Shown: one piece after another, positions 7,983 through 61,272 of the stretch
Position numbering within the stretch: the stretch's first letter is position 1
Layout: every line of letters starts with the position of its first letter
Source: an uncultured Alphaproteobacteria bacterium
GTDB taxonomy: Bacteria; Pseudomonadota; Alphaproteobacteria; Rs-D84
Reading direction: 5' to 3'
Length of the DNA: 64,000 bases
NCBI GenBank assembly: GCA_946613195.1
Contig: CAMOFE010000001.1
Span: 8,151 to 72,150, forward strand
Notes under the pieces: generated by a model
Database searches by the model: none
Seen by the model: only the letters and a program-made list of their open reading frames with translations
Told to the model about the DNA's origin: nothing
Position numbers and translations under genes: made by a program

Positions 7983-8007
7983 TCGCCCCATGTGGGGCGA
8001 TTTTTAA
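7983..8007 (+). terminator. Rho-independent terminator (GC hairpin CGCCCCATGTGGGGCG + T-tract)
   Basis: Perfect hairpin followed by TTTTT immediately after the M23 peptidase stop codon. Confidence 0.6.
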
Positions 8008-8060
8008 GTGAATAGTGAAAAGTGAATTAATGTATAAATACCCGCACAAACTGTGCGGGC
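8004..8060. repeat. Partial copy of dispersed palindromic repeat family A (TAAGTGAATAGTGAAAAGT.. with CCCGCAC..GTGCGGG hairpin)
   Basis: Shares the TAAGTGAATAGTGAAAAGTGAAT head and the CCCGCAC-loop-GTGCGGG hairpin with copies at 43.7 kb and 61.15 kb. Confidence 0.6.
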
Positions 8061-8948: not shown

Positions 8949-8983
8949 GGTTGCAGGTTGTATGTTGTTAGTGTTTTTTTATC

Positions 8984-9034
8984 ACAGGGCAGAGAGTAAC
9001 GAAAGGACCAGCAACCAAAAAATCATAAATCTTT
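8984..9034. repeat. Dispersed repeat family B (..CAGAGAG(T/C)AACGAAAG..ACCAGCAACCAAAAAATCATAAATC..)
   Basis: Near-identical ~50-nt element is also found at 37735-37792 and 45035-45085, each upstream of a gene start. Confidence 0.6.
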
Positions 9035-9043
9035 TTTGCCCCC

Positions 9044-11152
9044 TTGCAAATCGCTATTAAATATTTTACAATGTTACATATTATGAAATTCAAGAAGTTA
9101 GGTCGTGTTTTCCTGCATATTATATTCTGGTGCGTTGTCGCCGTGGTTGCGGCTTTAGCGGGATTGGTGCTGATATATGGAAATGATTTGCCTGATTATA
9201 AAAAATTGGCAACATATGCGCCACCGGTTGCAACACGACTGTATGCATCTGATGGGTCTTTGCTGATTGAATATGCCGAAGAACGGCGTGTGGTTATTGA
9301 TTTTAACGATATGCCGCCACAATTGGTTAATGCATTTGTTGCCGCCGAAGACCAAAATTTCTGGACACACCCGGGTATTGATGTTCAGGGAATTTTGCGC
9401 GCATCCGCCAATAATTTGATGCGTGCAGTTGGTTTTAATACAAAGTTTTCTGGCGCATCAACAATTACCCAACAGGTTGCCAAGAACTTTTTCCTGTCAT
9501 CGGACAGAACACTATCGCGCAAGGTAAAAGAAGCAATTTTGGCGTTGCGCCTGGAACGCACTTTTTCTAAGCAACATATTATGACACTGTATCTGAACCA
9601 GATATTCCTGGGGGCGCGTGCATATGGCGTTGGGTCGGCGGCATTGATGTATTTTAATAAGCCGGTTAAAGAATTGTCTTTGTCAGAATGTGCATTTTTG
9701 GCGTCCTTGCCCAAGGCACCAAATGATAGGGACAGGGCAGTAGAACGGCGAAACTATGTCTTGCATCGTATGGTTGCCGAAGGATTTATCAGTCGTGCAG
9801 ACGCAGATGCCGCCGCCGCCGAAGAATTAAATATTAACAGTGGATTTACCGCGCAAATGGCAGATGATTTTCAATACTTTGCCGAAGATGTGCGGCGGCA
9901 ACTGTTGGGAAAATTGGGACGTGATACATTATATAATGACGGTTTGTATATAAAAACAACCATTGTCCCAGAATTACAACGCGCAGCGGCGGCGGCGCTG
10001 AAAAAAGAACTGGATGCATATAATAACGGACGTGGTGATAAATTACAGGGCGCAATTATCGCAATGAATCCGCATACAGGACGCGTATTGGCAATGACGG
10101 GCGGTTATTCTTTTGCAGATAGTTCTTTTAACCGCGCAACCCAGGCATATCGTCAAATTGGCAGTACGATAAAACCTTTTATTTACTTGGCGGCACTGGA
10201 ACAAGGTATGTCGCCCCAGGCGCTGTTATTAGATGCACCGATTGTTGGTTGGCGCGAAGATGATAGTCTATGGAAACCTGAAAATTATGATAAAAAATTC
10301 TTGGGTGATGTGCCAATGCGTCTGTCGCTGGAAACATCACGCAATGTGCCAACTGTCAGATTAGTTGAACAAATTGGTGTGCGTACATCTATTGACACCG
10401 CCCAGCGATTCGGTGTGTATCCAGAAAATATGCGCAATATGAATTTGTCTTTGGCGTTGGGGTCGGGTGAAACAACACTGGAAAAATTGGTGTTGGGGTA
10501 TTCTGCGTTTGTAAATGGTGGACATAAAATTCAATCCAAACTGGTTGATTACATAGAAGACAGGTATGGTCGCGTTGTTGGTTCTGCGGTTCCTGATATG
10601 ATTGAATGGAATGATGAATTGTTACCGCCAGATATTGCAGATGCAACAGAACCATTGTCGGATGCGCAAAGTTTATATCAAATTGTATCAATTTTACAAG
10701 GGGCGGTTGAACGTGGTACTGGTCGCCAGGCCCAGGTCCCCGGTCATACAATTGCCGGGAAAACAGGTACAACGAACGATGTCAAAGATGTCTGGTTTGT
10801 AGGCTTTTCTAAAAATATTATTGCTGGGGTCTATCTGGGGTATGATACGCCACGTTCGCTGGGCAAGGGCGCAGGCAGTCATATGGCCGCCCGCGTGTTC
10901 GCAGATTTTATGAATGTTGCATTGGCAAACGAAAAGAATCAGCCGTTTTCTGTGCCAGACGGAATGAGTTTTGTGCGTGTTAATCGTCGCAGTGGTGCCG
11001 CCGCATCTGCCGACCCAGATGGCACAATTATTACCGAAGCGTTTAAGCCCGGTCAATCGCCAAATCCCGCACCTGTACAGGCATATTATAATAATGGTGA
11101 TGCTGAAAATCTTGCTCCTGCAAATGCACCTGTGGTTGGTGGCGTATTTTAA
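9044..11152 (+). CDS. mrcA: Penicillin-binding protein 1A (bifunctional transglycosylase/transpeptidase)
   Basis: GT51 motifs (EDQNFWTHPGID, ITQQVAKN), TM anchor, transpeptidase SXXK (GSTIKPF) and KTG (GKTGTT). Confidence 0.9.
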   Translation: MQIAIKYFTMLHIMKFKKLGRVFLHIIFWCVVAVVAALAGLVLIYGNDLPDYKKLATYAPPVATRLYASDGSLLIEYAEERRVVIDFNDMPPQLVNAFVAAEDQNFWTHPGIDVQGILRASANNLMRAVGFNTKFSGASTITQQVAKNFFLSSDRTLSRKVKEAILALRLERTFSKQHIMTLYLNQIFLGARAYGVGSAALMYFNKPVKELSLSECAFLASLPKAPNDRDRAVERRNYVLHRMVAEGFISRADADAAAAEELNINSGFTAQMADDFQYFAEDVRRQLLGKLGRDTLYNDGLYIKTTIVPELQRAAAAALKKELDAYNNGRGDKLQGAIIAMNPHTGRVLAMTGGYSFADSSFNRATQAYRQIGSTIKPFIYLAALEQGMSPQALLLDAPIVGWREDDSLWKPENYDKKFLGDVPMRLSLETSRNVPTVRLVEQIGVRTSIDTAQRFGVYPENMRNMNLSLALGSGETTLEKLVLGYSAFVNGGHKIQSKLVDYIEDRYGRVVGSAVPDMIEWNDELLPPDIADATEPLSDAQSLYQIVSILQGAVERGTGRQAQVPGHTIAGKTGTTNDVKDVWFVGFSKNIIAGVYLGYDTPRSLGKGAGSHMAARVFADFMNVALANEKNQPFSVPDGMSFVRVNRRSGAAASADPDGTIITEAFKPGQSPNPAPVQAYYNNGDAENLAPANAPVVGGVF

Positions 11153-18920: not shown

Positions 18921-20437
18921 CCTAATTTTTTCTTTAATATTTCATTTACAACCGCCGGGTTTGCCTGACCCGCCGTTGCCTTCATCACATTCCCAACAAA
19001 GAAGCCCAGCAAGCCAACTTTGCCCCCGCGATATTGTTCTACTTGTGCTGGATTTGCAGCAATAACCGCATCCACCGCTGATTCGATTGCGGATGTATCG
19101 GTGATTTGTTCCATACCGAATTTTTTCGCAATTTCATGTGGTGTGCCGGTTTCGCCGTCCAACATTTTAATAAAGATTTCTTTGGCTTGTTTACCGTTGA
19201 TTTCAGATGCTGCAATCATATCAACCAATTCTGCTAAATCAGATGGTGTTATTATGCGCATACCGTCAACTGTGCCAGACTTTTGATTTTCTATATCATA
19301 GTTTTCTGGGTGTGCAAACAATTCAGAAATCATCCAGTTTGCAATCGGTTTGGCACGTATCGGTTTATCACCAACCGCCGCATCATACCAATGTGAAACA
19401 TCTGTTGTTTCTGTCAGGCGCGTTGCGTCATATTCCGACAGACCATATTGCCCCATATACCGCGCACGTGTCGCCGCCGGCAATTCTGGTAATGTCTTGC
19501 GAATGCGTTCAATCATATCATCAGTTATAACCAGTGGTAATAAGTCTGGGTCTGGGAAATAGCGATAGTCCAACGCATCTTCTTTACTGCGCATAACGCT
19601 GGTGGTGCCATCATCTGCGTGGAAACGCATAGTATCCTGGGAAACTTCGCCACCATTTTCATATATTTCAATTTGACGGCGTGCCTCATACTCAATGGCG
19701 GTTTTAATAAACTTAAACGACACCATATTTTTGGTTTCTGTACGTGTGCGGAATGTTTTTTCACCAACGCGTCTTACCGAAACATTTACATCGGCACGCA
19801 TAGAACCTTCTTCCATATTTGCGCGTGATACGCCCAGGGCGCGCGCGATTTCGCGAATTTGTCGCAGGTATCTTTCGGCTTCATCTGGGGACGAAATGTA
19901 CGAATTATTTTCTGGATTTTTTGTGTCCAGGAATGTAACGATTTCCAACAATGCAACACCTGTACGATTATAATCGGCAAAAGATTTTGTTGGATGTACA
20001 TCGTGTTTTAATTTTCCTGCATCTTGTTCCAGGTGCGCACGTTCAATTAAAATCTTTTTTGGATTGCCATCATCGCCGATAATTTCAATATGGCCGCGAC
20101 CAACAATTGGTGCGACTTCGGGTGGTTGTGAAATCTGATATCCCTGGGGCAGGTCAGGATAGAAATATTGTTTACGGGCAAAAATGCTGCGTTTTGATAT
20201 TTCTGCATTTATCCCCAGACCAAATTTAATTGCCTGTTCAACGCAATATTTATTTAATACAGGCAACATGCCAGGCATTGCCACATCAACCATTGAAACC
20301 TGGGTATTGGGGGCAACGGTCGGATTATAGTCCGCAGATGCACCACTGAATAACTTGGAATTAGACAGCACTTCTATATGTGTTTCCAACCCAATTACCA
20401 ATTCCCAATCGCCTGTTTTGCCGTGTATAGTGAACAT
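18917..20437 (-). CDS. gatB: Asp/Glu-tRNA(Asn/Gln) amidotransferase subunit B
   Basis: Full-length GatB (506 aa) with the conserved N-terminus (WE.VIGLE.H..L) and C-terminal YqeY-like tail. Confidence 0.95.
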   Translation of the reverse strand: MFTIHGKTGDWELVIGLETHIEVLSNSKLFSGASADYNPTVAPNTQVSMVDVAMPGMLPVLNKYCVEQAIKFGLGINAEISKRSIFARKQYFYPDLPQGYQISQPPEVAPIVGRGHIEIIGDDGNPKKILIERAHLEQDAGKLKHDVHPTKSFADYNRTGVALLEIVTFLDTKNPENNSYISSPDEAERYLRQIREIARALGVSRANMEEGSMRADVNVSVRRVGEKTFRTRTETKNMVSFKFIKTAIEYEARRQIEIYENGGEVSQDTMRFHADDGTTSVMRSKEDALDYRYFPDPDLLPLVITDDMIERIRKTLPELPAATRARYMGQYGLSEYDATRLTETTDVSHWYDAAVGDKPIRAKPIANWMISELFAHPENYDIENQKSGTVDGMRIITPSDLAELVDMIAASEINGKQAKEIFIKMLDGETGTPHEIAKKFGMEQITDTSAIESAVDAVIAANPAQVEQYRGGKVGLLGFFVGNVMKATAGQANPAVVNEILKKKLG

Positions 20438-34928: not shown

Positions 34929-35195
34929 AAGATTTCTTGTATATACAGTGTATATACAAAGCGCAGAAATCAGGCATAAAACCGAATCGTTGTCAAAAAA
35001 TAAATCGTAAAAAAACATTTAACATTTGGTTGCAAACGAATATTTATATTCTACATTATCAAACGTAATCAGAACGATAAAAAATCTTTTTTGTGATTAC
35101 ACAACAAACTTACGCGGAGAGGGATGAAACACAGTAGGGGCACAAACATAAATACTAAATTTTTTTCGTAAATTACGGATAAATTTGGCGTTTAT

Positions 35196-36539
35196 GTGCG
35201 GGTGGTTTTTACACTCTTGCGCGGGCAGGAAACTCTTTTAAGGAAGGAAAGGAGAAACGGCATGCAGGCAGCGGCAACAAAACAAATAATAAACTTGGAA
35301 AACATCCGGGGTGCGATTGCCGCCAAAATTGATTCTGCCGCGTTTACTTCTTGGATTGAACCACTGAAATTTAGTATTTGTGATGGCGTGCTGGTATTGG
35401 GTGCACAAAATCAATTCTCGGCTGATTATATAGCCAGTGTTTATAATGGTGTGTTATCTGCTGTTGCGGCTGAATTTGGTTTGACATTGTCAATATATGT
35501 TGCGTCTGTGCCTGTTGCGACAACAAAAATCGCGAACGACAACAACACACAAAATTATGCGCCGGCGACACCAGATGTTACGGCGCATATTGCATTTGAT
35601 GATTTTGTATCGTCTGATGAAAATGCATTTGTATTATCTGCGGCGCGCAGGGTCGCGACAGGCGCAGTATCTTTTTCACCACTGTTTATATATGGGCCGG
35701 CGGGTTGTGGTAAAACATTATTGGCAAATTGTATAAATTCATCTGCCACGGGTCGTGTTGTTATGATGTCTGGGGCACAATTTGTTGCAGAATTTACACG
35801 CAGTTTGGCGACACACACAATTTTCGCATTCAAGGATTTTTGTCGCAATTGTGATACATTTATTCTGGACGATATTCAGGTCTTGGCGGGCAAGCGCGCA
35901 ACAATGGACGAATTTATGCAACTGGTTATTGATTTACGCGAAGCGGGCAAAAACGTTGTGTTAACATCTGCGCAATCCCCAAACAATTTATCTGGGTTTG
36001 ACAGACGCGCACAATCATTATTGGCATCGGGCTTGGTTGCGGATATGGTGGCACCTGATAAAAACGCGCGTCGTACAATTTTGATTCGTTCTGGCGTTGC
36101 AAATGATGTTGCAGAATATATTGCCGCGCATACAACTGCAAATGGTCATACAATTGCCGGCGTTGCAAATAAAATCAAAACATACAGTGAATTAATGGGT
36201 CAATCGGTTGATATTGATACTGCATCGCGCCTGTTGGCAGATACACTGGAAAAATCCAAGACACCGATTGCGATGGTACGCGATATGTGTGAAAAACTGG
36301 GCGTGTCGTATGATTCTGTGTGCGGGGCAGGGCGTGGTCGTCGTTTGGTCTTGGCACGCCAGATAATGATGGTTGTATTAAAAGATGTTACAAATTTATC
36401 ATTGGCGGAAATTGGGAATATGGTTGGTGGTCGCGATCATGCAACGGTTTTGTATGCGATTCGCCAGATAGAAAAATTAAAACAGTCAGACTTGGTTTTG
36501 TCTGCGCAAATTAATCAGTTTATTTCAGATTGCAGATAG
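35196..36539 (+). CDS. dnaA: Chromosomal replication initiator DnaA (divergent)
   Basis: AAA+ P-loop (GPAGCGKTLL), sensor motifs, and C-terminal domain IV with HTH (..GGRDHATVLYAIRQIEKL..). The likely true start is the internal MQAAATK, preceded by a GGAAAGGAGA RBS. Confidence 0.8.
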   Translation: MRVVFTLLRGQETLLRKERRNGMQAAATKQIINLENIRGAIAAKIDSAAFTSWIEPLKFSICDGVLVLGAQNQFSADYIASVYNGVLSAVAAEFGLTLSIYVASVPVATTKIANDNNTQNYAPATPDVTAHIAFDDFVSSDENAFVLSAARRVATGAVSFSPLFIYGPAGCGKTLLANCINSSATGRVVMMSGAQFVAEFTRSLATHTIFAFKDFCRNCDTFILDDIQVLAGKRATMDEFMQLVIDLREAGKNVVLTSAQSPNNLSGFDRRAQSLLASGLVADMVAPDKNARRTILIRSGVANDVAEYIAAHTTANGHTIAGVANKIKTYSELMGQSVDIDTASRLLADTLEKSKTPIAMVRDMCEKLGVSYDSVCGAGRGRRLVLARQIMMVVLKDVTNLSLAEIGNMVGGRDHATVLYAIRQIEKLKQSDLVLSAQINQFISDCR

Positions 36540-37734: not shown

Positions 37735-37792
37735 CGCAGAGAGCAAAGAGCAACGAAAGTACCAGCAACCAAAAAATCATAAATCATAAATC
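37735..37792. repeat. Dispersed repeat family B copy
   Basis: CAGAGAGCAAAGAGCAACGAAAGTACCAGCAACCAAAAAATCATAAATCATAAATC, matching 8984-9034 and 45035-45085. Confidence 0.6.
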
Positions 37793-39715
37793 TTGAACAG
37801 TGTCTTGTTTTATGATAAAATTGCATTCAGAGAGAATATGAAATCAATTACGCGTTTTTTTGCGTTTGTTTTATGCGCGGTGCCACTGTGCGCGGCGGCT
37901 GCGCCTGTTGCAACCACCGCCGGCAGTAATTTAACCGCATATAATCCAACCACAGGTGCAACAAATAATAATATGTGGAATACACTGATGAATGGACGCG
38001 GTGCGGCGGGCGGAAATAACGCGGCACCGGCAGATTTTGGAAACTGTAATGCACTGATAATTCGTTGCGCATCACCAAAGTGTGCTAATGGTGGATGCAC
38101 AGATATGGATGTCGCATCATCTATTGTGCGCGGATGTGTTAATTCCAATGAAAATTGTAAAAAATATGGCGATGATTTGGTTGAATACATATCTGCACAG
38201 TTGGTCGCATCTTCTAATGCAAAAATAAATGCTGCCAATGTTGCGGCGCAAAATGCCACTGCTGCGGCTGTGGCACAACAAAATGCCCAGCAAATGGCAG
38301 AAATGCAACAACAGATGCAACAGATGCAGGCAGAAATGGCGCAACAAAATGCGGCAACTGTTCAGGCAATGCAGGCGGCACTGGATGAACAGAAACAATT
38401 AACCGCAGATGCAATCGCAAATGCAAACGCAACACAACAAAGTGCGCCGTCTTATACTGCGCCGGTGCCAACAAATTCAGAATATGATAATGGGTTAACC
38501 AACGCCCAGATTATTGCGGCGCAAAATGGTGTGTCTGCGGATGTTTTGGCGCGTGAACAAATTGTTGGTGAAATAATGTCAAAACTGGAAAATGCAGAAA
38601 CCGCATTAAAGACATTAAAGACCACAATGCAAGATGCATTTGATTATGCGGGTTGTGATTCATTTGGTAATAATTGCAGTGGGCCAAAACGCGTGTCTGC
38701 GTTCAAGTCGCGTGCGATAAAATTCTTTGATCCATATAATACGGTGTTGGACGAATTATATGATGCGTTAATCACTGCCCAGGCCGCCGGTGTTGATATA
38801 ACAGATATCTATATGATGCTGGAAGGGTCATGTAATGTCTGGGGACAATATTTGTGTTCACAGACAGAACTTGGTGCGTATGCCGATGGGAGTAGTTTGC
38901 CAAAAAGTTGTGATAAGAATACTGGTAAAAGTATAAAATCTGGCAGTACCAAAGGGGGGCGTGATTGTGTAATTGGGCAACCAATTCCCCCCGAAGACAG
39001 TCCATTGTGCACACTGCAAAAAACATACGCCGATGGCGAAAGTGTGCGTCGCGCATGGTTGTACCCCGAAGAAGGTGATGATGAAACCCAGGGTGGTGCA
39101 ATACGCGTTGGGTGTGCGTCGTCTGCGCTGGATAATTCTAAATTCTTTCGCAGTCGCAAAAAACAGGCACAAATTGATATTGAAATACTGGAACGTATAA
39201 TTGAACAAGATGCATCTGCGTCCAGTGGTTTTACCATGTTTGGTGCGCGCCGGGACGATGGCGCACGTCGTGAACAAACATACGGTGCATGTGCGATTGG
39301 CGAAACAATGTATGCAGATTTGCAGAAAATAACCGCAACAAAAAAATTGCCAGACAAAATATGTATGAAACAACGCGATGCGATTGAAAAAGTCCGCAAT
39401 GATGCCCCATTGGCACTTGCAACAGGTGGCATGTCCAAGACAATCTTGAAATATCACGAACAATGTGAAAAAGAAGATAGAGAGAGTGTTACGGATTATT
39501 GGGAATGTTTGTGTCCAAAAATAGGTAATGGTTACACAAAATCTAGTGAAGGTGAATATTGTTCTTGCGGAACGGATTCTAATAAATATTGGGGCAAGGA
39601 TAATTATTACGAATGTTTGACCGATGACCAAATATGCACACGTAAACAGTTTTGTACAGGTACACAAAAATCACAATGGAATCAGACTGAAAAAACATGT
39701 GGTGATTGCAAATAA
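37793..39715 (+). CDS. Large secreted Cys-rich protein with Ala/Gln-rich coiled-coil segment, unknown function
   Basis: Signal peptide at the internal MKSITRFFAFVLCAVPLCAAAAP. ~30 Cys in CxxC/CxnC patterns in the N- and C-terminal regions. Central region QQNAQQMAEMQQQMQQMQAEMAQQNAATVQAMQAAL. 640 aa. Confidence 0.5.
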   Translation: MNSVLFYDKIAFRENMKSITRFFAFVLCAVPLCAAAAPVATTAGSNLTAYNPTTGATNNNMWNTLMNGRGAAGGNNAAPADFGNCNALIIRCASPKCANGGCTDMDVASSIVRGCVNSNENCKKYGDDLVEYISAQLVASSNAKINAANVAAQNATAAAVAQQNAQQMAEMQQQMQQMQAEMAQQNAATVQAMQAALDEQKQLTADAIANANATQQSAPSYTAPVPTNSEYDNGLTNAQIIAAQNGVSADVLAREQIVGEIMSKLENAETALKTLKTTMQDAFDYAGCDSFGNNCSGPKRVSAFKSRAIKFFDPYNTVLDELYDALITAQAAGVDITDIYMMLEGSCNVWGQYLCSQTELGAYADGSSLPKSCDKNTGKSIKSGSTKGGRDCVIGQPIPPEDSPLCTLQKTYADGESVRRAWLYPEEGDDETQGGAIRVGCASSALDNSKFFRSRKKQAQIDIEILERIIEQDASASSGFTMFGARRDDGARREQTYGACAIGETMYADLQKITATKKLPDKICMKQRDAIEKVRNDAPLALATGGMSKTILKYHEQCEKEDRESVTDYWECLCPKIGNGYTKSSEGEYCSCGTDSNKYWGKDNYYECLTDDQICTRKQFCTGTQKSQWNQTEKTCGDCK

Positions 39716-42564: not shown

Positions 42565-43689
42565 ATGAATAAAAATCCGTATGAAGTGTTAGGTGTGGCG
42601 CGTGATGCGTCAGATACTGATATTAAAAAGGCGTATCATAAACTGGTTATGAAATACCACCCTGATAAAAATCCAGGGGACAAGGGTGCCGAAGAAAAAT
42701 TCAAGGAAGTAAATAACGCGTTTGATATTCTAAAAGACCCACAAAAACGTGCAGCGTATGACCGATTCGGTGATGCGGCGTTTGCCGGTGGTAACGGCGC
42801 ATCTGCGGGTGCGGGTGGTTTTGGCGGTAATCCATTTGGTGGTGGTTTTCACTTTGATATGGGTGGCGCAGGCATGGATGATATTTTACGCCAGGCGATG
42901 CGTGGCTTCGGTTTTGATATGGGCGATGGTCCGCGTGGTGCGTCCGTGGCGCGTTCGGGTCGCGATTTATTGGACGAAGTACAAATATCACTGCGTGATG
43001 CGTATTTTGGCAAAACGCATACTGTTAAATTTTCAACAAATGTTGCGTGTGATAAATGTAATGGTTATGGCACGGCGGATGGTAAACCGGCGCTGGTATG
43101 TCCGCGTTGTAATGGACGTGGAACAGTTGCGGCACGCCAAGGATTCTTTGCGGTTGAAATGCCATGTCCAGAATGTAATGGTTTGGGACACAAAATTGAC
43201 AAGAAATGCACAAAATGCGGTGGGGATGGCACGGTAAATAAACAACGCACATTGGATGTTAAAATCCCAGCCGGCATTATGGATGGTGCGCGATTGCGCC
43301 TGGCAGGCCAGGGCGAGGCGGGACAAAACGGTGCGCCAGCGGGGGATTTTTACCTGGATGTGCGTGTGATGCCAGATGACAAGTTTACGCGTGATGGCGA
43401 TGATTTGATTCAACGGGTTGAAGTGCCATTTACAACATTGGCGTTGGGTGGCGATATAGATGTTGAAACAATTGATGATAAAAAATTGTCTGTATCTATT
43501 TCATCTGGTACCCAGGTTGGCGCAAAATTGCGTGTACGTGGGCATGGTATGCCGCGTGCGCGTGGTGGCGGTATGGGTGATATGTATATTGATGTTGCGA
43601 TTCGGATTCCAACAAAATTAAATGATAAGCAAAAGAAAGCATTATCTGAATTTGCCGGAATCAAAAATGATAAAAAAGGTTGGTTCTGA
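42565..43689 (+). CDS. dnaJ: Chaperone DnaJ
   Basis: J-domain with HPD, Gly/Phe region, four CxxCxGxG zinc-finger repeats. 374 aa. Confidence 0.92.
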   Translation: MNKNPYEVLGVARDASDTDIKKAYHKLVMKYHPDKNPGDKGAEEKFKEVNNAFDILKDPQKRAAYDRFGDAAFAGGNGASAGAGGFGGNPFGGGFHFDMGGAGMDDILRQAMRGFGFDMGDGPRGASVARSGRDLLDEVQISLRDAYFGKTHTVKFSTNVACDKCNGYGTADGKPALVCPRCNGRGTVAARQGFFAVEMPCPECNGLGHKIDKKCTKCGGDGTVNKQRTLDVKIPAGIMDGARLRLAGQGEAGQNGAPAGDFYLDVRVMPDDKFTRDGDDLIQRVEVPFTTLALGGDIDVETIDDKKLSVSISSGTQVGAKLRVRGHGMPRARGGGMGDMYIDVAIRIPTKLNDKQKKALSEFAGIKNDKKGWF

Positions 43690-43715
43690 TAAACAATCGC
43701 GCCATGTGCACAATT

Positions 43716-43848
43716 GTTTAAGTGAATAGTGAAAAGTTAATAGTGAATAATGTATGAACGCCCGCACGATTTATCGTGCGGGTGCATTAATTAATGTTGA
43801 GCCGACAAAATGTCGGCGCACAAACACTGTTCACTTAAAAAAACTATT
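43716..43848. repeat. Full copy of dispersed palindromic repeat family A (MITE-like, ~130 bp)
   Basis: TAAGTGAATAGTGAAAAGTTAATAGTGAATAATG..CCCGCACGATTTATCGTGCGGG..GCCGACAAAATGTCGGCG..CACTGTTCACTTA. Inverted termini and two internal hairpins. Nearly identical to 61153-61272. Confidence 0.7.
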
Positions 43849-44018
43849 GCATGTTTTTTTTTCTTGCGTTTGTTCTGATAGTTTTTATACACTGGCAAAT
43901 GAAAAATGCGGGGGAACAGAAATGAGCAAGGCATATGGCATAGGGCATAAAGCATATATAAGCAATAGAACAAAGCAATTAAATCATAAATCAGCAATCC
44001 GAAATCATAAATTAATGA

Positions 44019-44759
44019 TTGTTTTTTGCATTATGCACTATGCCCGTTGCCATTTGCATTAGTCCAGTCAATGCAGAAGAATACTGTGTTCCGACAAATT
44101 ATACAATAACATATCAATTGGGCGGTGGTTGTAATGGTACCGCGCCATCATCTGTAACGGTTGCCCGTGGTGCGAATTTTACGACACCAAATGCCGCAAC
44201 GGCGTGTGGCGACAATACCGTTACAAAATGGAAAATAGACGGCACAAATGATTACATAACATCAAACACAACATTGCCATACGTGTGGACGAATGATATA
44301 ACATTGGTTGCAGGCGCCACCGTTGTCAGCCTATCTGCGCCGTATTCTGTAAATACCAGCATACACGGTTATCAGAACGACAGTCGTAGTGCATACGGTG
44401 CAGAGTCATTCAATTGCACCGGATGCAACGATAATGAATGGCATGCGGACTTCAGTTATGGCACGGTAACTGGCATTGCCAGTTGTAACAGCACCCCTGG
44501 CGATAATCAGGATATGAAATGGACAAATCCGACAACAGCCAGTTCAGACAGTATGAGCAGCAGCAGTACCGGTCAATATTGCTGGTGTAAAATGACAGGC
44601 TTTGCCGGGCAGTCATTGTCGGTTGCGCCGTGGGGGTTCTTCTACGACTACGACAGTGCGGACAGTTGCGCGGCCGGCTGTGCGTCCCACGTTGCCGCTC
44701 ATCCCGGATTCCGCGGGGCGGTGTATAACGCATCGGGCGTGATTAATTCCGAAGAATAA
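44019..44759 (+). CDS. Secreted Cys-rich hypothetical protein
   Basis: Probable signal peptide (..ICISPVNA|EEYC). 246 aa with ~14 Cys and Thr/Asn-rich beta-like segments. Start is uncertain (TTG/ATG). Confidence 0.45.
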   Translation: MFFALCTMPVAICISPVNAEEYCVPTNYTITYQLGGGCNGTAPSSVTVARGANFTTPNAATACGDNTVTKWKIDGTNDYITSNTTLPYVWTNDITLVAGATVVSLSAPYSVNTSIHGYQNDSRSAYGAESFNCTGCNDNEWHADFSYGTVTGIASCNSTPGDNQDMKWTNPTTASSDSMSSSSTGQYCWCKMTGFAGQSLSVAPWGFFYDYDSADSCAAGCASHVAAHPGFRGAVYNASGVINSEE

Positions 44760-45120
44760 AGTTAAATATCCATCTGTGCATCGGTATAGCAGCGATTAAG
44801 GCACAGGGCAAAAGTTCCCCTCTGGCTAGAGGGGTGCCGCGAAAGCGGCGGGGTGTCGTGAAAAAAAAAGAGCACAGAGCAGAGAGTACAGAGCACAGTG
44901 TTCTACCGCCACTGTCATACTCGGGCTTGACCCGAGTACCCAGGTAAATAATGCAGCGCGCAATGCGCGCACAAATAAACCTGGATTCCACGGTCAAGCC
45001 GTGGAATGACAGGAAAAGAGAGTAATGACAAAAATAGAGCACAGAGAGCAACCAACAACCAGCAACCTAAAAATCATAAATTCAGTAATTGCTGGATTTT
45101 ATTCTTGCTTTTTAATCATT
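44760..45120. repeat. Composite intergenic repeat region (multiple perfect palindromes plus family B repeat)
   Basis: Palindromes CCCCTCTGGCTAGAGGGG, ACTCGGGCTTGACCCGAGT, TTCCACGGTCAAGCCGTGGAA and CAGCGCGCAATGCGCGC; AGAGCACAGAGCAGAGAGTACAGAGCACAG reiterations; family B copy at 45035-45085. Confidence 0.65.
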
Positions 45121-45170
45121 AAAAAGTATAATAATTGCCAGTCTTAATGAAATAAACCAAGGTTTCTGAT

Positions 45171-45623
45171 ATGAAACGCAAAGAATATGTTCGTTTGATG
45201 GGACGTGCGCTGATTATGTTTGACAGATTGGCGGATGGATTAAAGTTACGTCCAGAAAAACTGGACGGTTTTACGCGCCAACAAATGACTGTGCTGGTAC
45301 GATTGCTGTTGGATGGCCGTGCCAAGTTAAAAGATATTGCGCGTCGCGAAATGGTATCTGCGCCGAATCTGTGCGCAACATTTCGGAAACTGGAACACGA
45401 TGGTTTGGTGTTGCGTACGGTTGATGAATCAGACAGACGAAACACGTGGTATTCTGTTACGCGTTCTGGGGAACGGGTTGCGCGTCGCGCCATTGAACAA
45501 TTTTATGATATGATGGAAAAAATGTTCGCAGATTTGGATTCAGATGATGAACAAGAATTAACAGGCGCATTGGAATCAATGAACGAAATTTTAACAAAGG
45601 TGGTAAAAAATCATGTTGGGTAA
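45171..45623 (+). CDS. MarR-family transcriptional regulator
   Basis: Winged HTH (..QMTVLVRLLLDGRAKLKDIARREMVSAPNLCATFRKLEHDGLVLRTVDESDRRNTWYSVTRSGE). 150 aa, first gene of the efflux operon. Confidence 0.8.
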   Translation: MKRKEYVRLMGRALIMFDRLADGLKLRPEKLDGFTRQQMTVLVRLLLDGRAKLKDIARREMVSAPNLCATFRKLEHDGLVLRTVDESDRRNTWYSVTRSGERVARRAIEQFYDMMEKMFADLDSDDEQELTGALESMNEILTKVVKNHVG

Positions 45624-50500: not shown

Positions 50501-50612
50501 GGCGGCGGTAATGATTGGCGGTATGTTGGCCAGTATGCTGTTCACATTTATGTTGACCCCGGCTTTGTTCTTTTTGATGGAAAGTTTGCGGGGCAGGGTA
50601 AAGAAAAAGTGA
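47583..50612 (+). CDS. RND-family efflux transporter (AcrB/HAE1-like)
   Basis: ~1000 aa, 12 TM in a 1+5/1+5 topology with two large periplasmic loops. Typical AcrB N-terminus (MLKFFVRRPVTT..). The true start is probably the internal MLKFF. Confidence 0.9.
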   Translation: MWGDFVMLKFFVRRPVTTIMFVLVWVVLGLVSIPKMNIERTPSLDFPMVTVRFIYPGASSEEIESQVIKKAEDAVSEVPELKHITSRIFENGGYIMTEFNLGVDANDKASEVKSKIDALASEFPDELKQPVVEKLNPLQESVVDIVLRGADARDLEKYVDDVLSNKITAIPGVAKVSTFGGRNRAIRVAMNPDLMAARGVTIMDVVSALGNKNLNVPGGKLEYGTTSENVRFIGEFASVDEISQLRITTAEGQNFRLSDIASVSDGARDIETGALYSGESVVIASVEKASDGNAIKISRELRKHLGEYQSDMQSRFPDATMTIATDSSVTVMDETLDTMWGIILGIVFTVLVLLAFTRNWRSTIIAGVVIPASLLAGFTFMSASGFTINVMTLLAYSSALGTLVANAIILIEAALQELRAGKSPEDAAIDGTKKVAVSVLAGVGTNVVVFLPLAFMGGIVGMFMVQFGLTVVYLTLLSLVFSFTLTPMMIAKILRLTPGDKKAAKPSVQKKRSTGWMRKIFVSQVRHPGRFAITAVVALVASTMLMRFVGNEFSPSTDANEINITARAPVGATYEKSESIARQIEKNISDIPEVLATTVKIGDQGLQNISVKVTLVDNSERGKSDKRLAQEMLPRLAVIPDAEIQIRAGQAMGSVSSDMVLNIYGPDDAVREKYANDIIAMANQITAVQSAVLAQQVAGNEIKFIPDAEKMNFWGIKNSYAGATLRAALYGNDDYKYKENGDEYPIILEYDSAFQNHAMFDMVYVNSPKGMVPLSSLGEIQTARATPDIRRLDKSRITEIDINIGKSTLGPVQAKIESGLKKMDWQPGYHYEFGGMSETQSESTGEIGSAFLLATILTFMLLAAILNSFTHPLTIATSIITSFFGVFIMLFLSGASMNVGAMVAFVMLVGLVVNNSILVLEPALARVRRGEDKTDAIWAELTSRRSMVMMTSIAIVTGMLPQLWSTNGMKAAMAAVMIGGMLASMLFTFMLTPALFFLMESLRGRVKKK

Positions 50613-50701
50613 ATAGTGAACAGTGAATAGTGTTTGTGCGCCGACATTTTATCGGCGCAACATTCATTTATTATTCACTATTAACTGTTCACTATTCACT
50701 A
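50608..50701. repeat. Family A repeat variant with perfect terminal inverted repeats
   Basis: GTGAATAGTGAACAGTGAATAGTG..GCGCCGACATTTTATCGGCGC..CACTATTAACTGTTCACTATTCAC. The element begins inside/at the RND stop codon (AAGTGAATAG). Confidence 0.65.
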
Positions 50702-61125: not shown

Positions 61126-61152
61126 AAAAAACGCCCCACGGGGCGTTTTTTT

Positions 61153-61272
61153 TTAAGTGAATAGTGAAAAGTTAAAAGTGAATAATGGACGAATGCCCAC
61201 ACGATGAATCATGTGGGCGCATCAATTAATGTTGCACCAACAAAATGTCGGCGCACAAACACTATTCACTAT
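61153..61272. repeat. Full copy of dispersed palindromic repeat family A
   Basis: TAAGTGAATAGTGAAAAGTTAAAAGTGAATAATG..GCCCACACGATGAATCATGTGGGC..ATGTCGGCGCACAAACACTATTCACTA, ~85% identical to 43716-43848. Confidence 0.7.

Follow-up and report, generated by a model that had tools for sequence, protein, structure and literature searches.

The DNA between a Cys-rich secreted-protein gene and marR raises the question of whether an island crowded with palindromes and reiterated motifs serves the control of the marR-efflux operon or has a different origin. The locus belongs to a 64-kb window, by which we mean the whole stretch of DNA analysed here. The gap in question spans 411 bp (44760-45170) and lies between a Cys-rich ORF of 246 amino acids (44019-44759, + strand) and marR (45171-45623, + strand), 3' of which genes for an outer-membrane factor (OEP), a membrane-fusion protein (MFP) and an RND pump are located. 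The nearest protein homologues of the host are found in MAGs named Alphaproteobacteria bacterium. Our main reading, to which we assign a probability of about 0.7, is that the island represents a non-coding mosaic of four unrelated repeat modules, which accumulated between a horizontally variable accessory gene and a conserved marR promoter. The features of the locus are as follows.

44019-44759, + strand: accessory Cys-rich secreted-protein gene; the ORF has 246 amino acids from the first start codon, the called product 239 amino acids.
44817-44854, + strand: double-hairpin module, CCCCTCT-ggct-AGAGGGG, T, GCCGC-gaaa-GCGGC, GGGG.
44859-44879, + strand: direct repeat of 21 nt, left copy, TGAAAAAAAAAGAGCACAGAG; its right counterpart (45026-45046) is identical at 19 of 21 positions.
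44869-44898, + strand: heptamer tandem array (AGAGCAC) x 4.3, detected by TRF; it resembles the 5' part of family B.
44913-44942, + strand: REP unit 1 of the CGTC type, from a pattern scan; TGTC head, stem ATACTCGGG/CCCGAGTAC with 8 of 9 positions paired, loop CTTGA, tail CCA.
44946-44978, no strand assigned: spacer of the REP dimer, 33 nt, with its own small stem-loop GCGCGC-aat-GCGCGC (44956-44970).
44982-45011, - strand: REP unit 2 of the CGTC type, inverted; TGTC head, stem ATTCCACGG/CCGTGGAAT with 9 of 9 positions paired, loop CTTGA, tail CCA.
45036-45081, + strand: family B copy by marR, AGAGCACAGAGAGCAACCAACAACCAGCAACCTAAAAATCATAAAT, A/C-rich and unstructured; it contains a (CAACCAA) x 2.7 array (45049-45067).
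45105-45132, + strand: conserved marR promoter with a -35-like TTGCTT (45105-45110), a 16-nt spacer and TATAAT (45127-45132).

Five stem-loops were observed in the island: 44817-44834 (CCCCTCT, loop ggct, 7 bp), 44836-44849 (GCCGC, loop gaaa, 5 bp), 44918-44938 (TACTCGGG, loop cttga, 8 bp), 44956-44970 (GCGCGC, loop aat, 6 bp) and 44985-45007 (ATTCCACGG, loop tcaag, 9 bp). A sixth, AT-rich hairpin (45108-45126) sits in the marR promoter, and every hairpin sequence is single-copy in the window. The initial annotation had counted four perfect palindromes of 17-21 bp. Their stems are indeed perfect, but the centres of 3-5 nt are non-palindromic, and the island holds five such structures, two of which are not independent. 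Together, the two hairpins of 21-23 nt make up the arms of a single inverted repeat of 100 nt (44912-45012). Elsewhere in the window, a perfect palindrome with a 10-bp stem, TTGTATATAC-agt-GTATATACAA (34937-34959), opens the 267-bp gap before dnaA (35196-36539; Pfam Bac_DnaA, DnaA_N and Bac_DnaA_C). A replication origin may be located near dnaA.

Whether the island belongs to the marR promoter can be judged from orthologous loci. The motif CTTG-N3-TTTAAT-N-ATTAAAA-N2-TATAAT is invariant in four of them (MarR identity 58-100%), while the island is absent at L003, L005 and L035. In L003 (81% MarR identity), an 80-bp gap follows a Cys-rich gene that is unrelated; in L005 (78%), dnaJ is followed by a terminator and the promoter; and in L035 (58%), two apparent tRNA genes, as read from the sequence, precede the promoter. 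Because of the four-locus invariance, we assign positions 45105-45132 to the marR promoter with its probable operator, a location 3' of everything that had been highlighted before. At the sequence level, the comparison shows the island to be dispensable for the conserved architecture of the marR promoter. As it was inserted beside this promoter and is not part of it, the island is largely ordinary; its modules would be unnecessary for marR control. It should not be taken for marR regulatory DNA.

The central 100 nt provide the clearest link to a known group of elements. The arms (44912-44945 and 44979-45012) constitute one 34-nt imperfect inverted repeat, and the two units in them form a head-outward (HH) heterodimer with tags at 44913 and 45011 and a spacer of 33 nt. 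Both units have a 9-bp stem starting with AT, in which the first pair is unmatched in unit 1 (8/9) and none is unmatched in unit 2 (9/9), together with a loop CTTGA and a tail CCA(GG). Four positions distinguish the stems of the two arms, each with a compensating change in its pairing partner; this, with the identical loop on opposite strands, fits REP units at the DNA level.

CGTC-tagged REPs comprise the families CGTC-1 to CGTC-4 and take in Neisseria dRS3 as well as Rickettsia RPE-4 and RPE-6, according to the survey by Di Nocera, De Gregorio and Rocco (2013, PMC3733652). The survey gives the head as CGTC with the documented variants TGTC or CCTC, a stem of 8-9 bp with complementary A-T at positions 1 and 2, a loop of 4-5 nt and an unpaired tail of three nucleotides that conforms to CCA. 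It further describes these REPs as extragenic and mostly found in Alphaproteobacteria, with a predominance of HH dimers (tags outside), common heterodimers and spacers of 20-100 bp that sometimes contain small stem-loops (PMC3733652). The pair in the window agrees in head, stem, loop and tail, in the HH dimer with its spacer and in the extragenic position in an alphaproteobacterial host. The 9-bp stem and 5-nt loop would fit family 3 or 4.

When the whole island was compared with plasmids by blastn, the sole match was a 31-nt stretch of REP arm 1 in Shinella; a search against phages with the whole island yielded no match. Arm 1 used by itself was found at 275 places in 86 plasmid or megaplasmid records, nearly all from Rhizobiaceae, and among the 40 listed records, those with a gene table show no annotation at the match sites. 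With arm 2, the plasmid matches were short and weak throughout. The commonest form in the Shinella, Sinorhizobium and Rhizobium copies is CGTC-ATCCTCGGG-cttga-CCCGAGGAT-CCA, and these copies carry the CCA tail and a loop that is identical or close to that of the window units (cttga, cttgaa, cttgc). Two elements, from Shinella and Rhizobium (R. hidalgonense), are HH dimers with spacers of approximately 27-29 nt and are collinear with the window element. The proposal of 'REP-like elements' is thus borne out for the central 100 nt, which fit the published definition and the Shinella/Rhizobium dimers, and we classify this segment as a CGTC-type REP HH dimer of a known superfamily typical of Alphaproteobacteria. 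The two units (one dimer) are the only ones in the 64-kb window, and the pattern scan found no REP dimer in about 120 kb of related contigs or in L029, a contig of the same metagenome assembly that may or may not belong to the same genome as the window. CGTC-type REPs are hereby recorded in an uncultured, low-GC alphaproteobacterium, for which the record names suggest an origin from a rumen metagenome.

An antisense ORF of 102 amino acids (44743-45051, - strand) crosses the island and overlaps the REP dimer. Since it overlaps the REP and has no Pfam match, it is very likely spurious. REPs are known to create spurious ORFs, and the dimer accounts for this one. In L031 (Shinella sp. HZN7 pShin-01, 931-1531), CGTC REP pairs are located on both sides of a gene for a GIY-YIG nuclease of 94 amino acids. 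CGTC REPs have been reported without a dedicated transposase. The nuclease was considered as a REP partner and dropped as an anecdotal single case; a Rhizobium REP dimer that was checked has no such neighbour, and no homologue was found in the window or the related loci.

The 3' module of the island is a copy of family B, of which the window contains two further copies.

8983-9031, + strand: family B copy in front of mrcA, 13 nt upstream of the promoter-like TTGCAA-17-TACAAT (9044-9072).
37737-37792, + strand: family B copy that has an additional AAATCAT unit and lies directly against the promoter-like TTGAAC-17-TAAAAT (37793-37821) of a gene for a secreted protein of 640 amino acids.

A search with the 24-mer ACCAGCAACC(A/T)AAAAATCATAAAT located family B at 9007-9030, 37761-37784 and 45058-45081, all on the + strand and exactly at the three sites where the initial annotation had placed it; 100 shuffled sequences contained no match. 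Conservation of the 24-nt core amounts to 96-100%, and over 49 nt the copies at 8983-9031 and 37737-37785 share 90% identity. The family is built of 7-nt units (AGAGCAx, CAACCAx, AAATCAT) and folds no better than shuffled sequences (z = -1.45). Terminal inverted repeats were not found in the copies, the flanks of the three copies have no target-site duplication in common and the boundaries of the element are diffuse. The -35 hexamer starts 0, 13 or 23 nt downstream of family B, and both hexamers, -35 and -10, are external to the repeat and vary from copy to copy.

The idea of a promoter-carrying MITE is not supported for family B, given the missing terminal inverted repeats and fold and the hexamers outside the repeat. 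In addition, family B is absent from the closest relatives, in which the marR and mrcA promoters are retained, so that the repeat itself carries no promoter. For mrcA, the closest relative (L041, 84% identity) shows a terminator, 20 nt and TTGCAA-17-TAAAAT, with family B missing. The -35 and the spacing in the window are as in this relative, but the distance from terminator to -35 is 97 nt with family B included. GTDB representative genomes (1 match) and JGI metagenomes (23 matches) contain no true match to family B, since none of these matches has family B flanks, and they are regarded as chance matches. Judged by these comparisons, family B is a recent, lineage-specific addition upstream of pre-existing promoters.

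The position of family B also allows for a function, namely that of a promoter-upstream module, either an UP-element-like A/T tract or an array of transcription-factor sites, that co-regulates envelope genes (mrcA, the 640-aa secreted protein, the Cys-rich protein and marR-efflux) and perhaps includes other 7-nt-periodic tracts. We regard this as the main alternative, though a tentative and rather unlikely one. All three copies are found in sense orientation; each is preceded by a gene or terminator and followed by a promoter-like site, the -35 of which is 0-23 nt away, although this distance varies from copy to copy. The three downstream genes are all envelope-related, which could mean function over insertion preference, but three copies are known and the + strand holds most genes of the window anyway. 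The conservation of the core over its 24 nt and the related AAATCAT arrays upstream of the Cys-rich gene are in line with such a module, as is the lack of structure, which is expected of a site in duplex DNA. However, the orthologous promoters in the closest relatives do without family B, and upon inspection the match to the E. coli UP consensus was moderate.

The mrcA locus showed a further characteristic. Only 10 nt separate the promoter-like -10 (TACAAT, 9067-9072) from a downstream ATG at 9083, and the hexamer overlaps another ATG (9071), which is the start that matches the recorded product length of 693 amino acids. The same layout (TAAAAT, 11 nt, ATG) was observed in L041 (9968-10003). 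This suggests that the mrcA mRNA may be leaderless or nearly so.

The reiterated motifs of the island were likewise confirmed, as AGAGCAC forms the 7-nt tandem array of 4.3 copies and occurs again at 45036. The 21-nt direct repeat brackets this array and the REP dimer, which suggests that the 5' end of family B may have been duplicated when the bracketed segment arose. Heptamer periodicity extends beyond the island. With TRF, 13 period-7 arrays of at least 2.5 copies were found in the window; 30 local shuffles contained 0.37 on average and never more than 2, so that the excess is approximately 35-fold. Other periods showed a small excess, with three arrays each for periods 6 and 12 (0.33 and 0.07 in shuffles). 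A comparison with the ORF map located all period-7 arrays in intergenic DNA or at its edge. Examples are located at 20391, 43930, 43980, 59645 and 63522. An 83-nt tract upstream of the Cys-rich gene (43930-44012) retains the 7-nt period while its unit shifts gradually from GGCATAT to AAATCAT. In the closest relative, 22 kb contained no array of period 7, and a further 20 kb contained one that is weak and AT-rich.

Another repeat family of the window, family A, is MITE-like with AGTGAAT arrays as its inverted ends (43714-43842, ~61149-61270, 8006-8060 and 50607-50701). The ends enclose GC-rich hairpins, the stems of which vary between copies with compensation; in one example the ends, TTGTTTAAGTGAATAGTG and CACTGTTCACTTAAAAAA, are 89% complementary. 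The copies at 43714 and 61149 are 87% identical over 122 nt. Each family A copy comes after a terminator or stop codon. The stop codon TGA of the RND pump (50610-50612) lies inside the first AGTGAAT unit of the family A-like element at 50607-50701, so that the insertion abuts or supplies the end of this ORF.

The 7-nt-periodic elements might belong together as an undescribed modular system, recent and confined to one rumen alphaproteobacterial lineage, that supplies or tunes promoter-upstream and terminator-downstream functions and spreads by an unknown mechanism. Its parts would be family B upstream of promoters, the AGTGAAT-ended family A after terminators and the other arrays. We consider this proposal speculative and its correctness unlikely. 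The heptamer arrays are the sole mildly unusual feature of the island mosaic, and the lineage-specific excess of 7-nt arrays, with the repeat families derived from them, is the only part that could lead to something new.

The 5' module has a different association. The double hairpin was found again at 9888-9927 of L029, where its 24-nt core is 96% identical, hairpin 1 has the stem CCCTTCG/CGAAGGG and the module lies just upstream of a Cys-rich paralogue of 69% identity. L029 contains neither family A, family B nor heptamer arrays. In L032, long inverted repeats with interruptions (48 nt, 92%; 26 nt, 96%; 16 nt, 94%) enclose a more distant Cys-rich homologue and contain a similarly designed module (CTCCCCC/GGGGGAG, then GCCGCG... 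and GGGG). Since the three stems are different and yet fully paired, the hairpin itself appears to be maintained. Comparison with plasmids yielded scattered chance matches only. From these three occurrences, the double hairpin can be said to accompany the Cys-rich gene family. In both close copies, the GAAA tetraloop lies on the sense strand, a hint of a possible role of the double hairpin at the RNA level.

Homologues of the Cys-rich gene were found solely in related uncultured Alphaproteobacteria, and the gene is absent from this position in the relatives L005, L003 and L035. The coordinates of the variable spot are 43690-45094 in the window, 8785-9920 in L003, 2654-2766 in L005, 9669-10968 in L034 and 9784-11409 in L032. 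The dnaJ-marR gap can be seen as a hot spot for accessory surface-protein genes that bring their own hairpin modules. The hairpin modules could also be recombination sites that bound a mobile or invertible cassette with the Cys-rich gene. The contents of the dnaJ-marR gap vary accordingly (empty in L005, an unrelated Cys-rich gene in L003, the present Cys-rich gene in the window), and in L034, which represents one MAG, a homologue is located between rpsK and rpoA. The inverted-repeat frame with its similar double hairpin in L032, together with a resolvase gene 8 kb away from the homologue, indicates that this one could be an invertible or mobile cassette. The module in the window, however, is one-sided without an inverted partner around the gene, no recombinase was identified alongside, and integron attC core sites (RYYYAAC ... 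GTTRRRY) in the right arrangement were not seen upon inspection. A cassette bounded by the hairpins is decidedly improbable. A single GTTRRRY match, at 44761, corresponds to the chance expectation and has no RYYYAAC partner, and an attC site was rejected.

Returning to the mosaic, its hairpins may be transcribed. The canonical terminators of the window consist of an A-run, a GC-hairpin and a T-run. In the terminator scan, the island yielded nothing on the + strand and just one weak site on the - strand (44972-44956), and no T-run is found behind any island hairpin on the + strand. The possibility that the palindromes are simply terminator hairpins of a longer upstream transcript can be discarded, as no + strand T-runs follow them. 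Because no + strand terminator follows the Cys-rich gene, the hairpins probably belong to its 3' untranslated region. In E. coli, REPs act as barriers to 3' exonucleases and as partial transcription stops. By analogy, transcribed hairpins of the island would slow 3' exonucleases and partly stop transcription, and would buffer marR from read-through.

That the island encodes a structured RNA (an sRNA or a leader that controls marR in cis) is very improbable. The predicted fold of the whole gap is strong (-128 kcal/mol, z = -5.7 compared to shuffles), a cloverleaf-like four-way junction is predicted for 44908-45016 (z = -7.4) and the double hairpin has a GNRA loop. The opposite strand folds equally well, however, as expected of palindromes in DNA: the second strand of the gap reached z = -5.2, and the REP dimer, for which the predicted junction is possible on either strand, gave -53 kcal/mol on the + strand and -57.6 kcal/mol on the - strand (z = -7.4 and -7.6). 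The loops of the two REPs are mutually reverse-complementary, so they differ in any one RNA. The island is also located upstream of the conserved marR promoter and is missing from the orthologous loci. Covariance models of Rfam (Rfam 15) gave no match for the island at the gathering score and two tRNAs only for the window. All matches up to E = 10 in the region 43650-45250 were far under the gathering score, and ARAGORN found neither a tRNA nor a tmRNA.

MarR-family proteins bind palindromes and the island hairpins lie near marR, but that they are sites for MarR or another efflux-operon regulator is extremely improbable, because none of them is conserved in the three orthologous loci that share the invariant promoter palindrome, because they are GC-rich with loops of 3-5 nt and all unlike one another, and because two of them belong to a repeat present at unrelated intergenic sites of Rhizobiaceae. 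The palindrome that is conserved, CTTTTTAA-tca-TTAAAAAG (45108-45126), is found at the 3' edge of the island between the -35 and -10 of the marR promoter. This TTTAAT-N-ATTAAA palindrome is the candidate and likely MarR operator, from which MarR would repress.

Taken together, the mosaic would have arisen by insertion or duplication of its modules, which are, from 5' to 3', the double hairpin that travels with the Cys-rich gene family, the heptamer array as a partial look-alike of family B, the head-outward CGTC-type REP heterodimer and a full family B copy of about 50 nt. We conclude that the island is an ordinary intergenic repeat mosaic, which holds a new member of the known REP superfamily. 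The initial annotation is confirmed in part: the sequence features that it described are real, with the corrections given above, and of its three interpretations the REP-like one stands for the central 100 nt, whereas the promoter-carrying MITE and the regulator sites are not supported.

Compared to known systems, the REP dimer resembles CGTC-tagged REPs in the TGTC head variant, the 9-bp stem from AT, the 5-nt loop, the CCA tail and the extragenic position. It also shares with them the HH heterodimer, a structured spacer of about 30 nt, an alphaproteobacterial host and sequence likeness to the Rhizobiaceae copies. It differs in that a single dimer was seen in this organism (41% GC) and in stems that are unlike the Rhizobiaceae consensus. 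A REP pair among other short repeats between same-strand genes is also typical of the BIMEs of E. coli and the NIMEs of Neisseria, but family B, the heptamer arrays and the double hairpin are unrelated to their components, and tandem reiteration of the REP is absent. As in autoregulatory operators of the MarR family, a conserved AT-rich palindrome (45108-45126) is located between the gene's own -35 and -10; unlike what was first proposed, this candidate is not among the palindromes of the initial annotation and lies at the edge of the span that it reported.

The closest counterparts of the 7-nt arrays are other heptamer repeats. The STRR heptamers of cyanobacteria are intergenic heptamer direct repeats. 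TAACTGA heptamer repeats occur in Beggiatoaceae, Cyanobacteria and Bacteroidetes (MacGregor 2015, PMC4679880); those of Beggiatoaceae, the nearest parallel in print, consist of a single unit placed beside start codons. The arrays of the window agree with both in having tandem 2-5 copies of 7-nt units and in their strong enrichment in intergenic DNA. In contrast to both, the window features several units (AGTGAAT, AGAGCAC, AAATCAT, CAACCAA and GGCATAT), and some of its arrays are the inverted ends of MITE-like elements. The arrays of the window are further distinguished from the TAACTGA repeats by their placement after terminators or upstream of the -35 instead of beside start codons.
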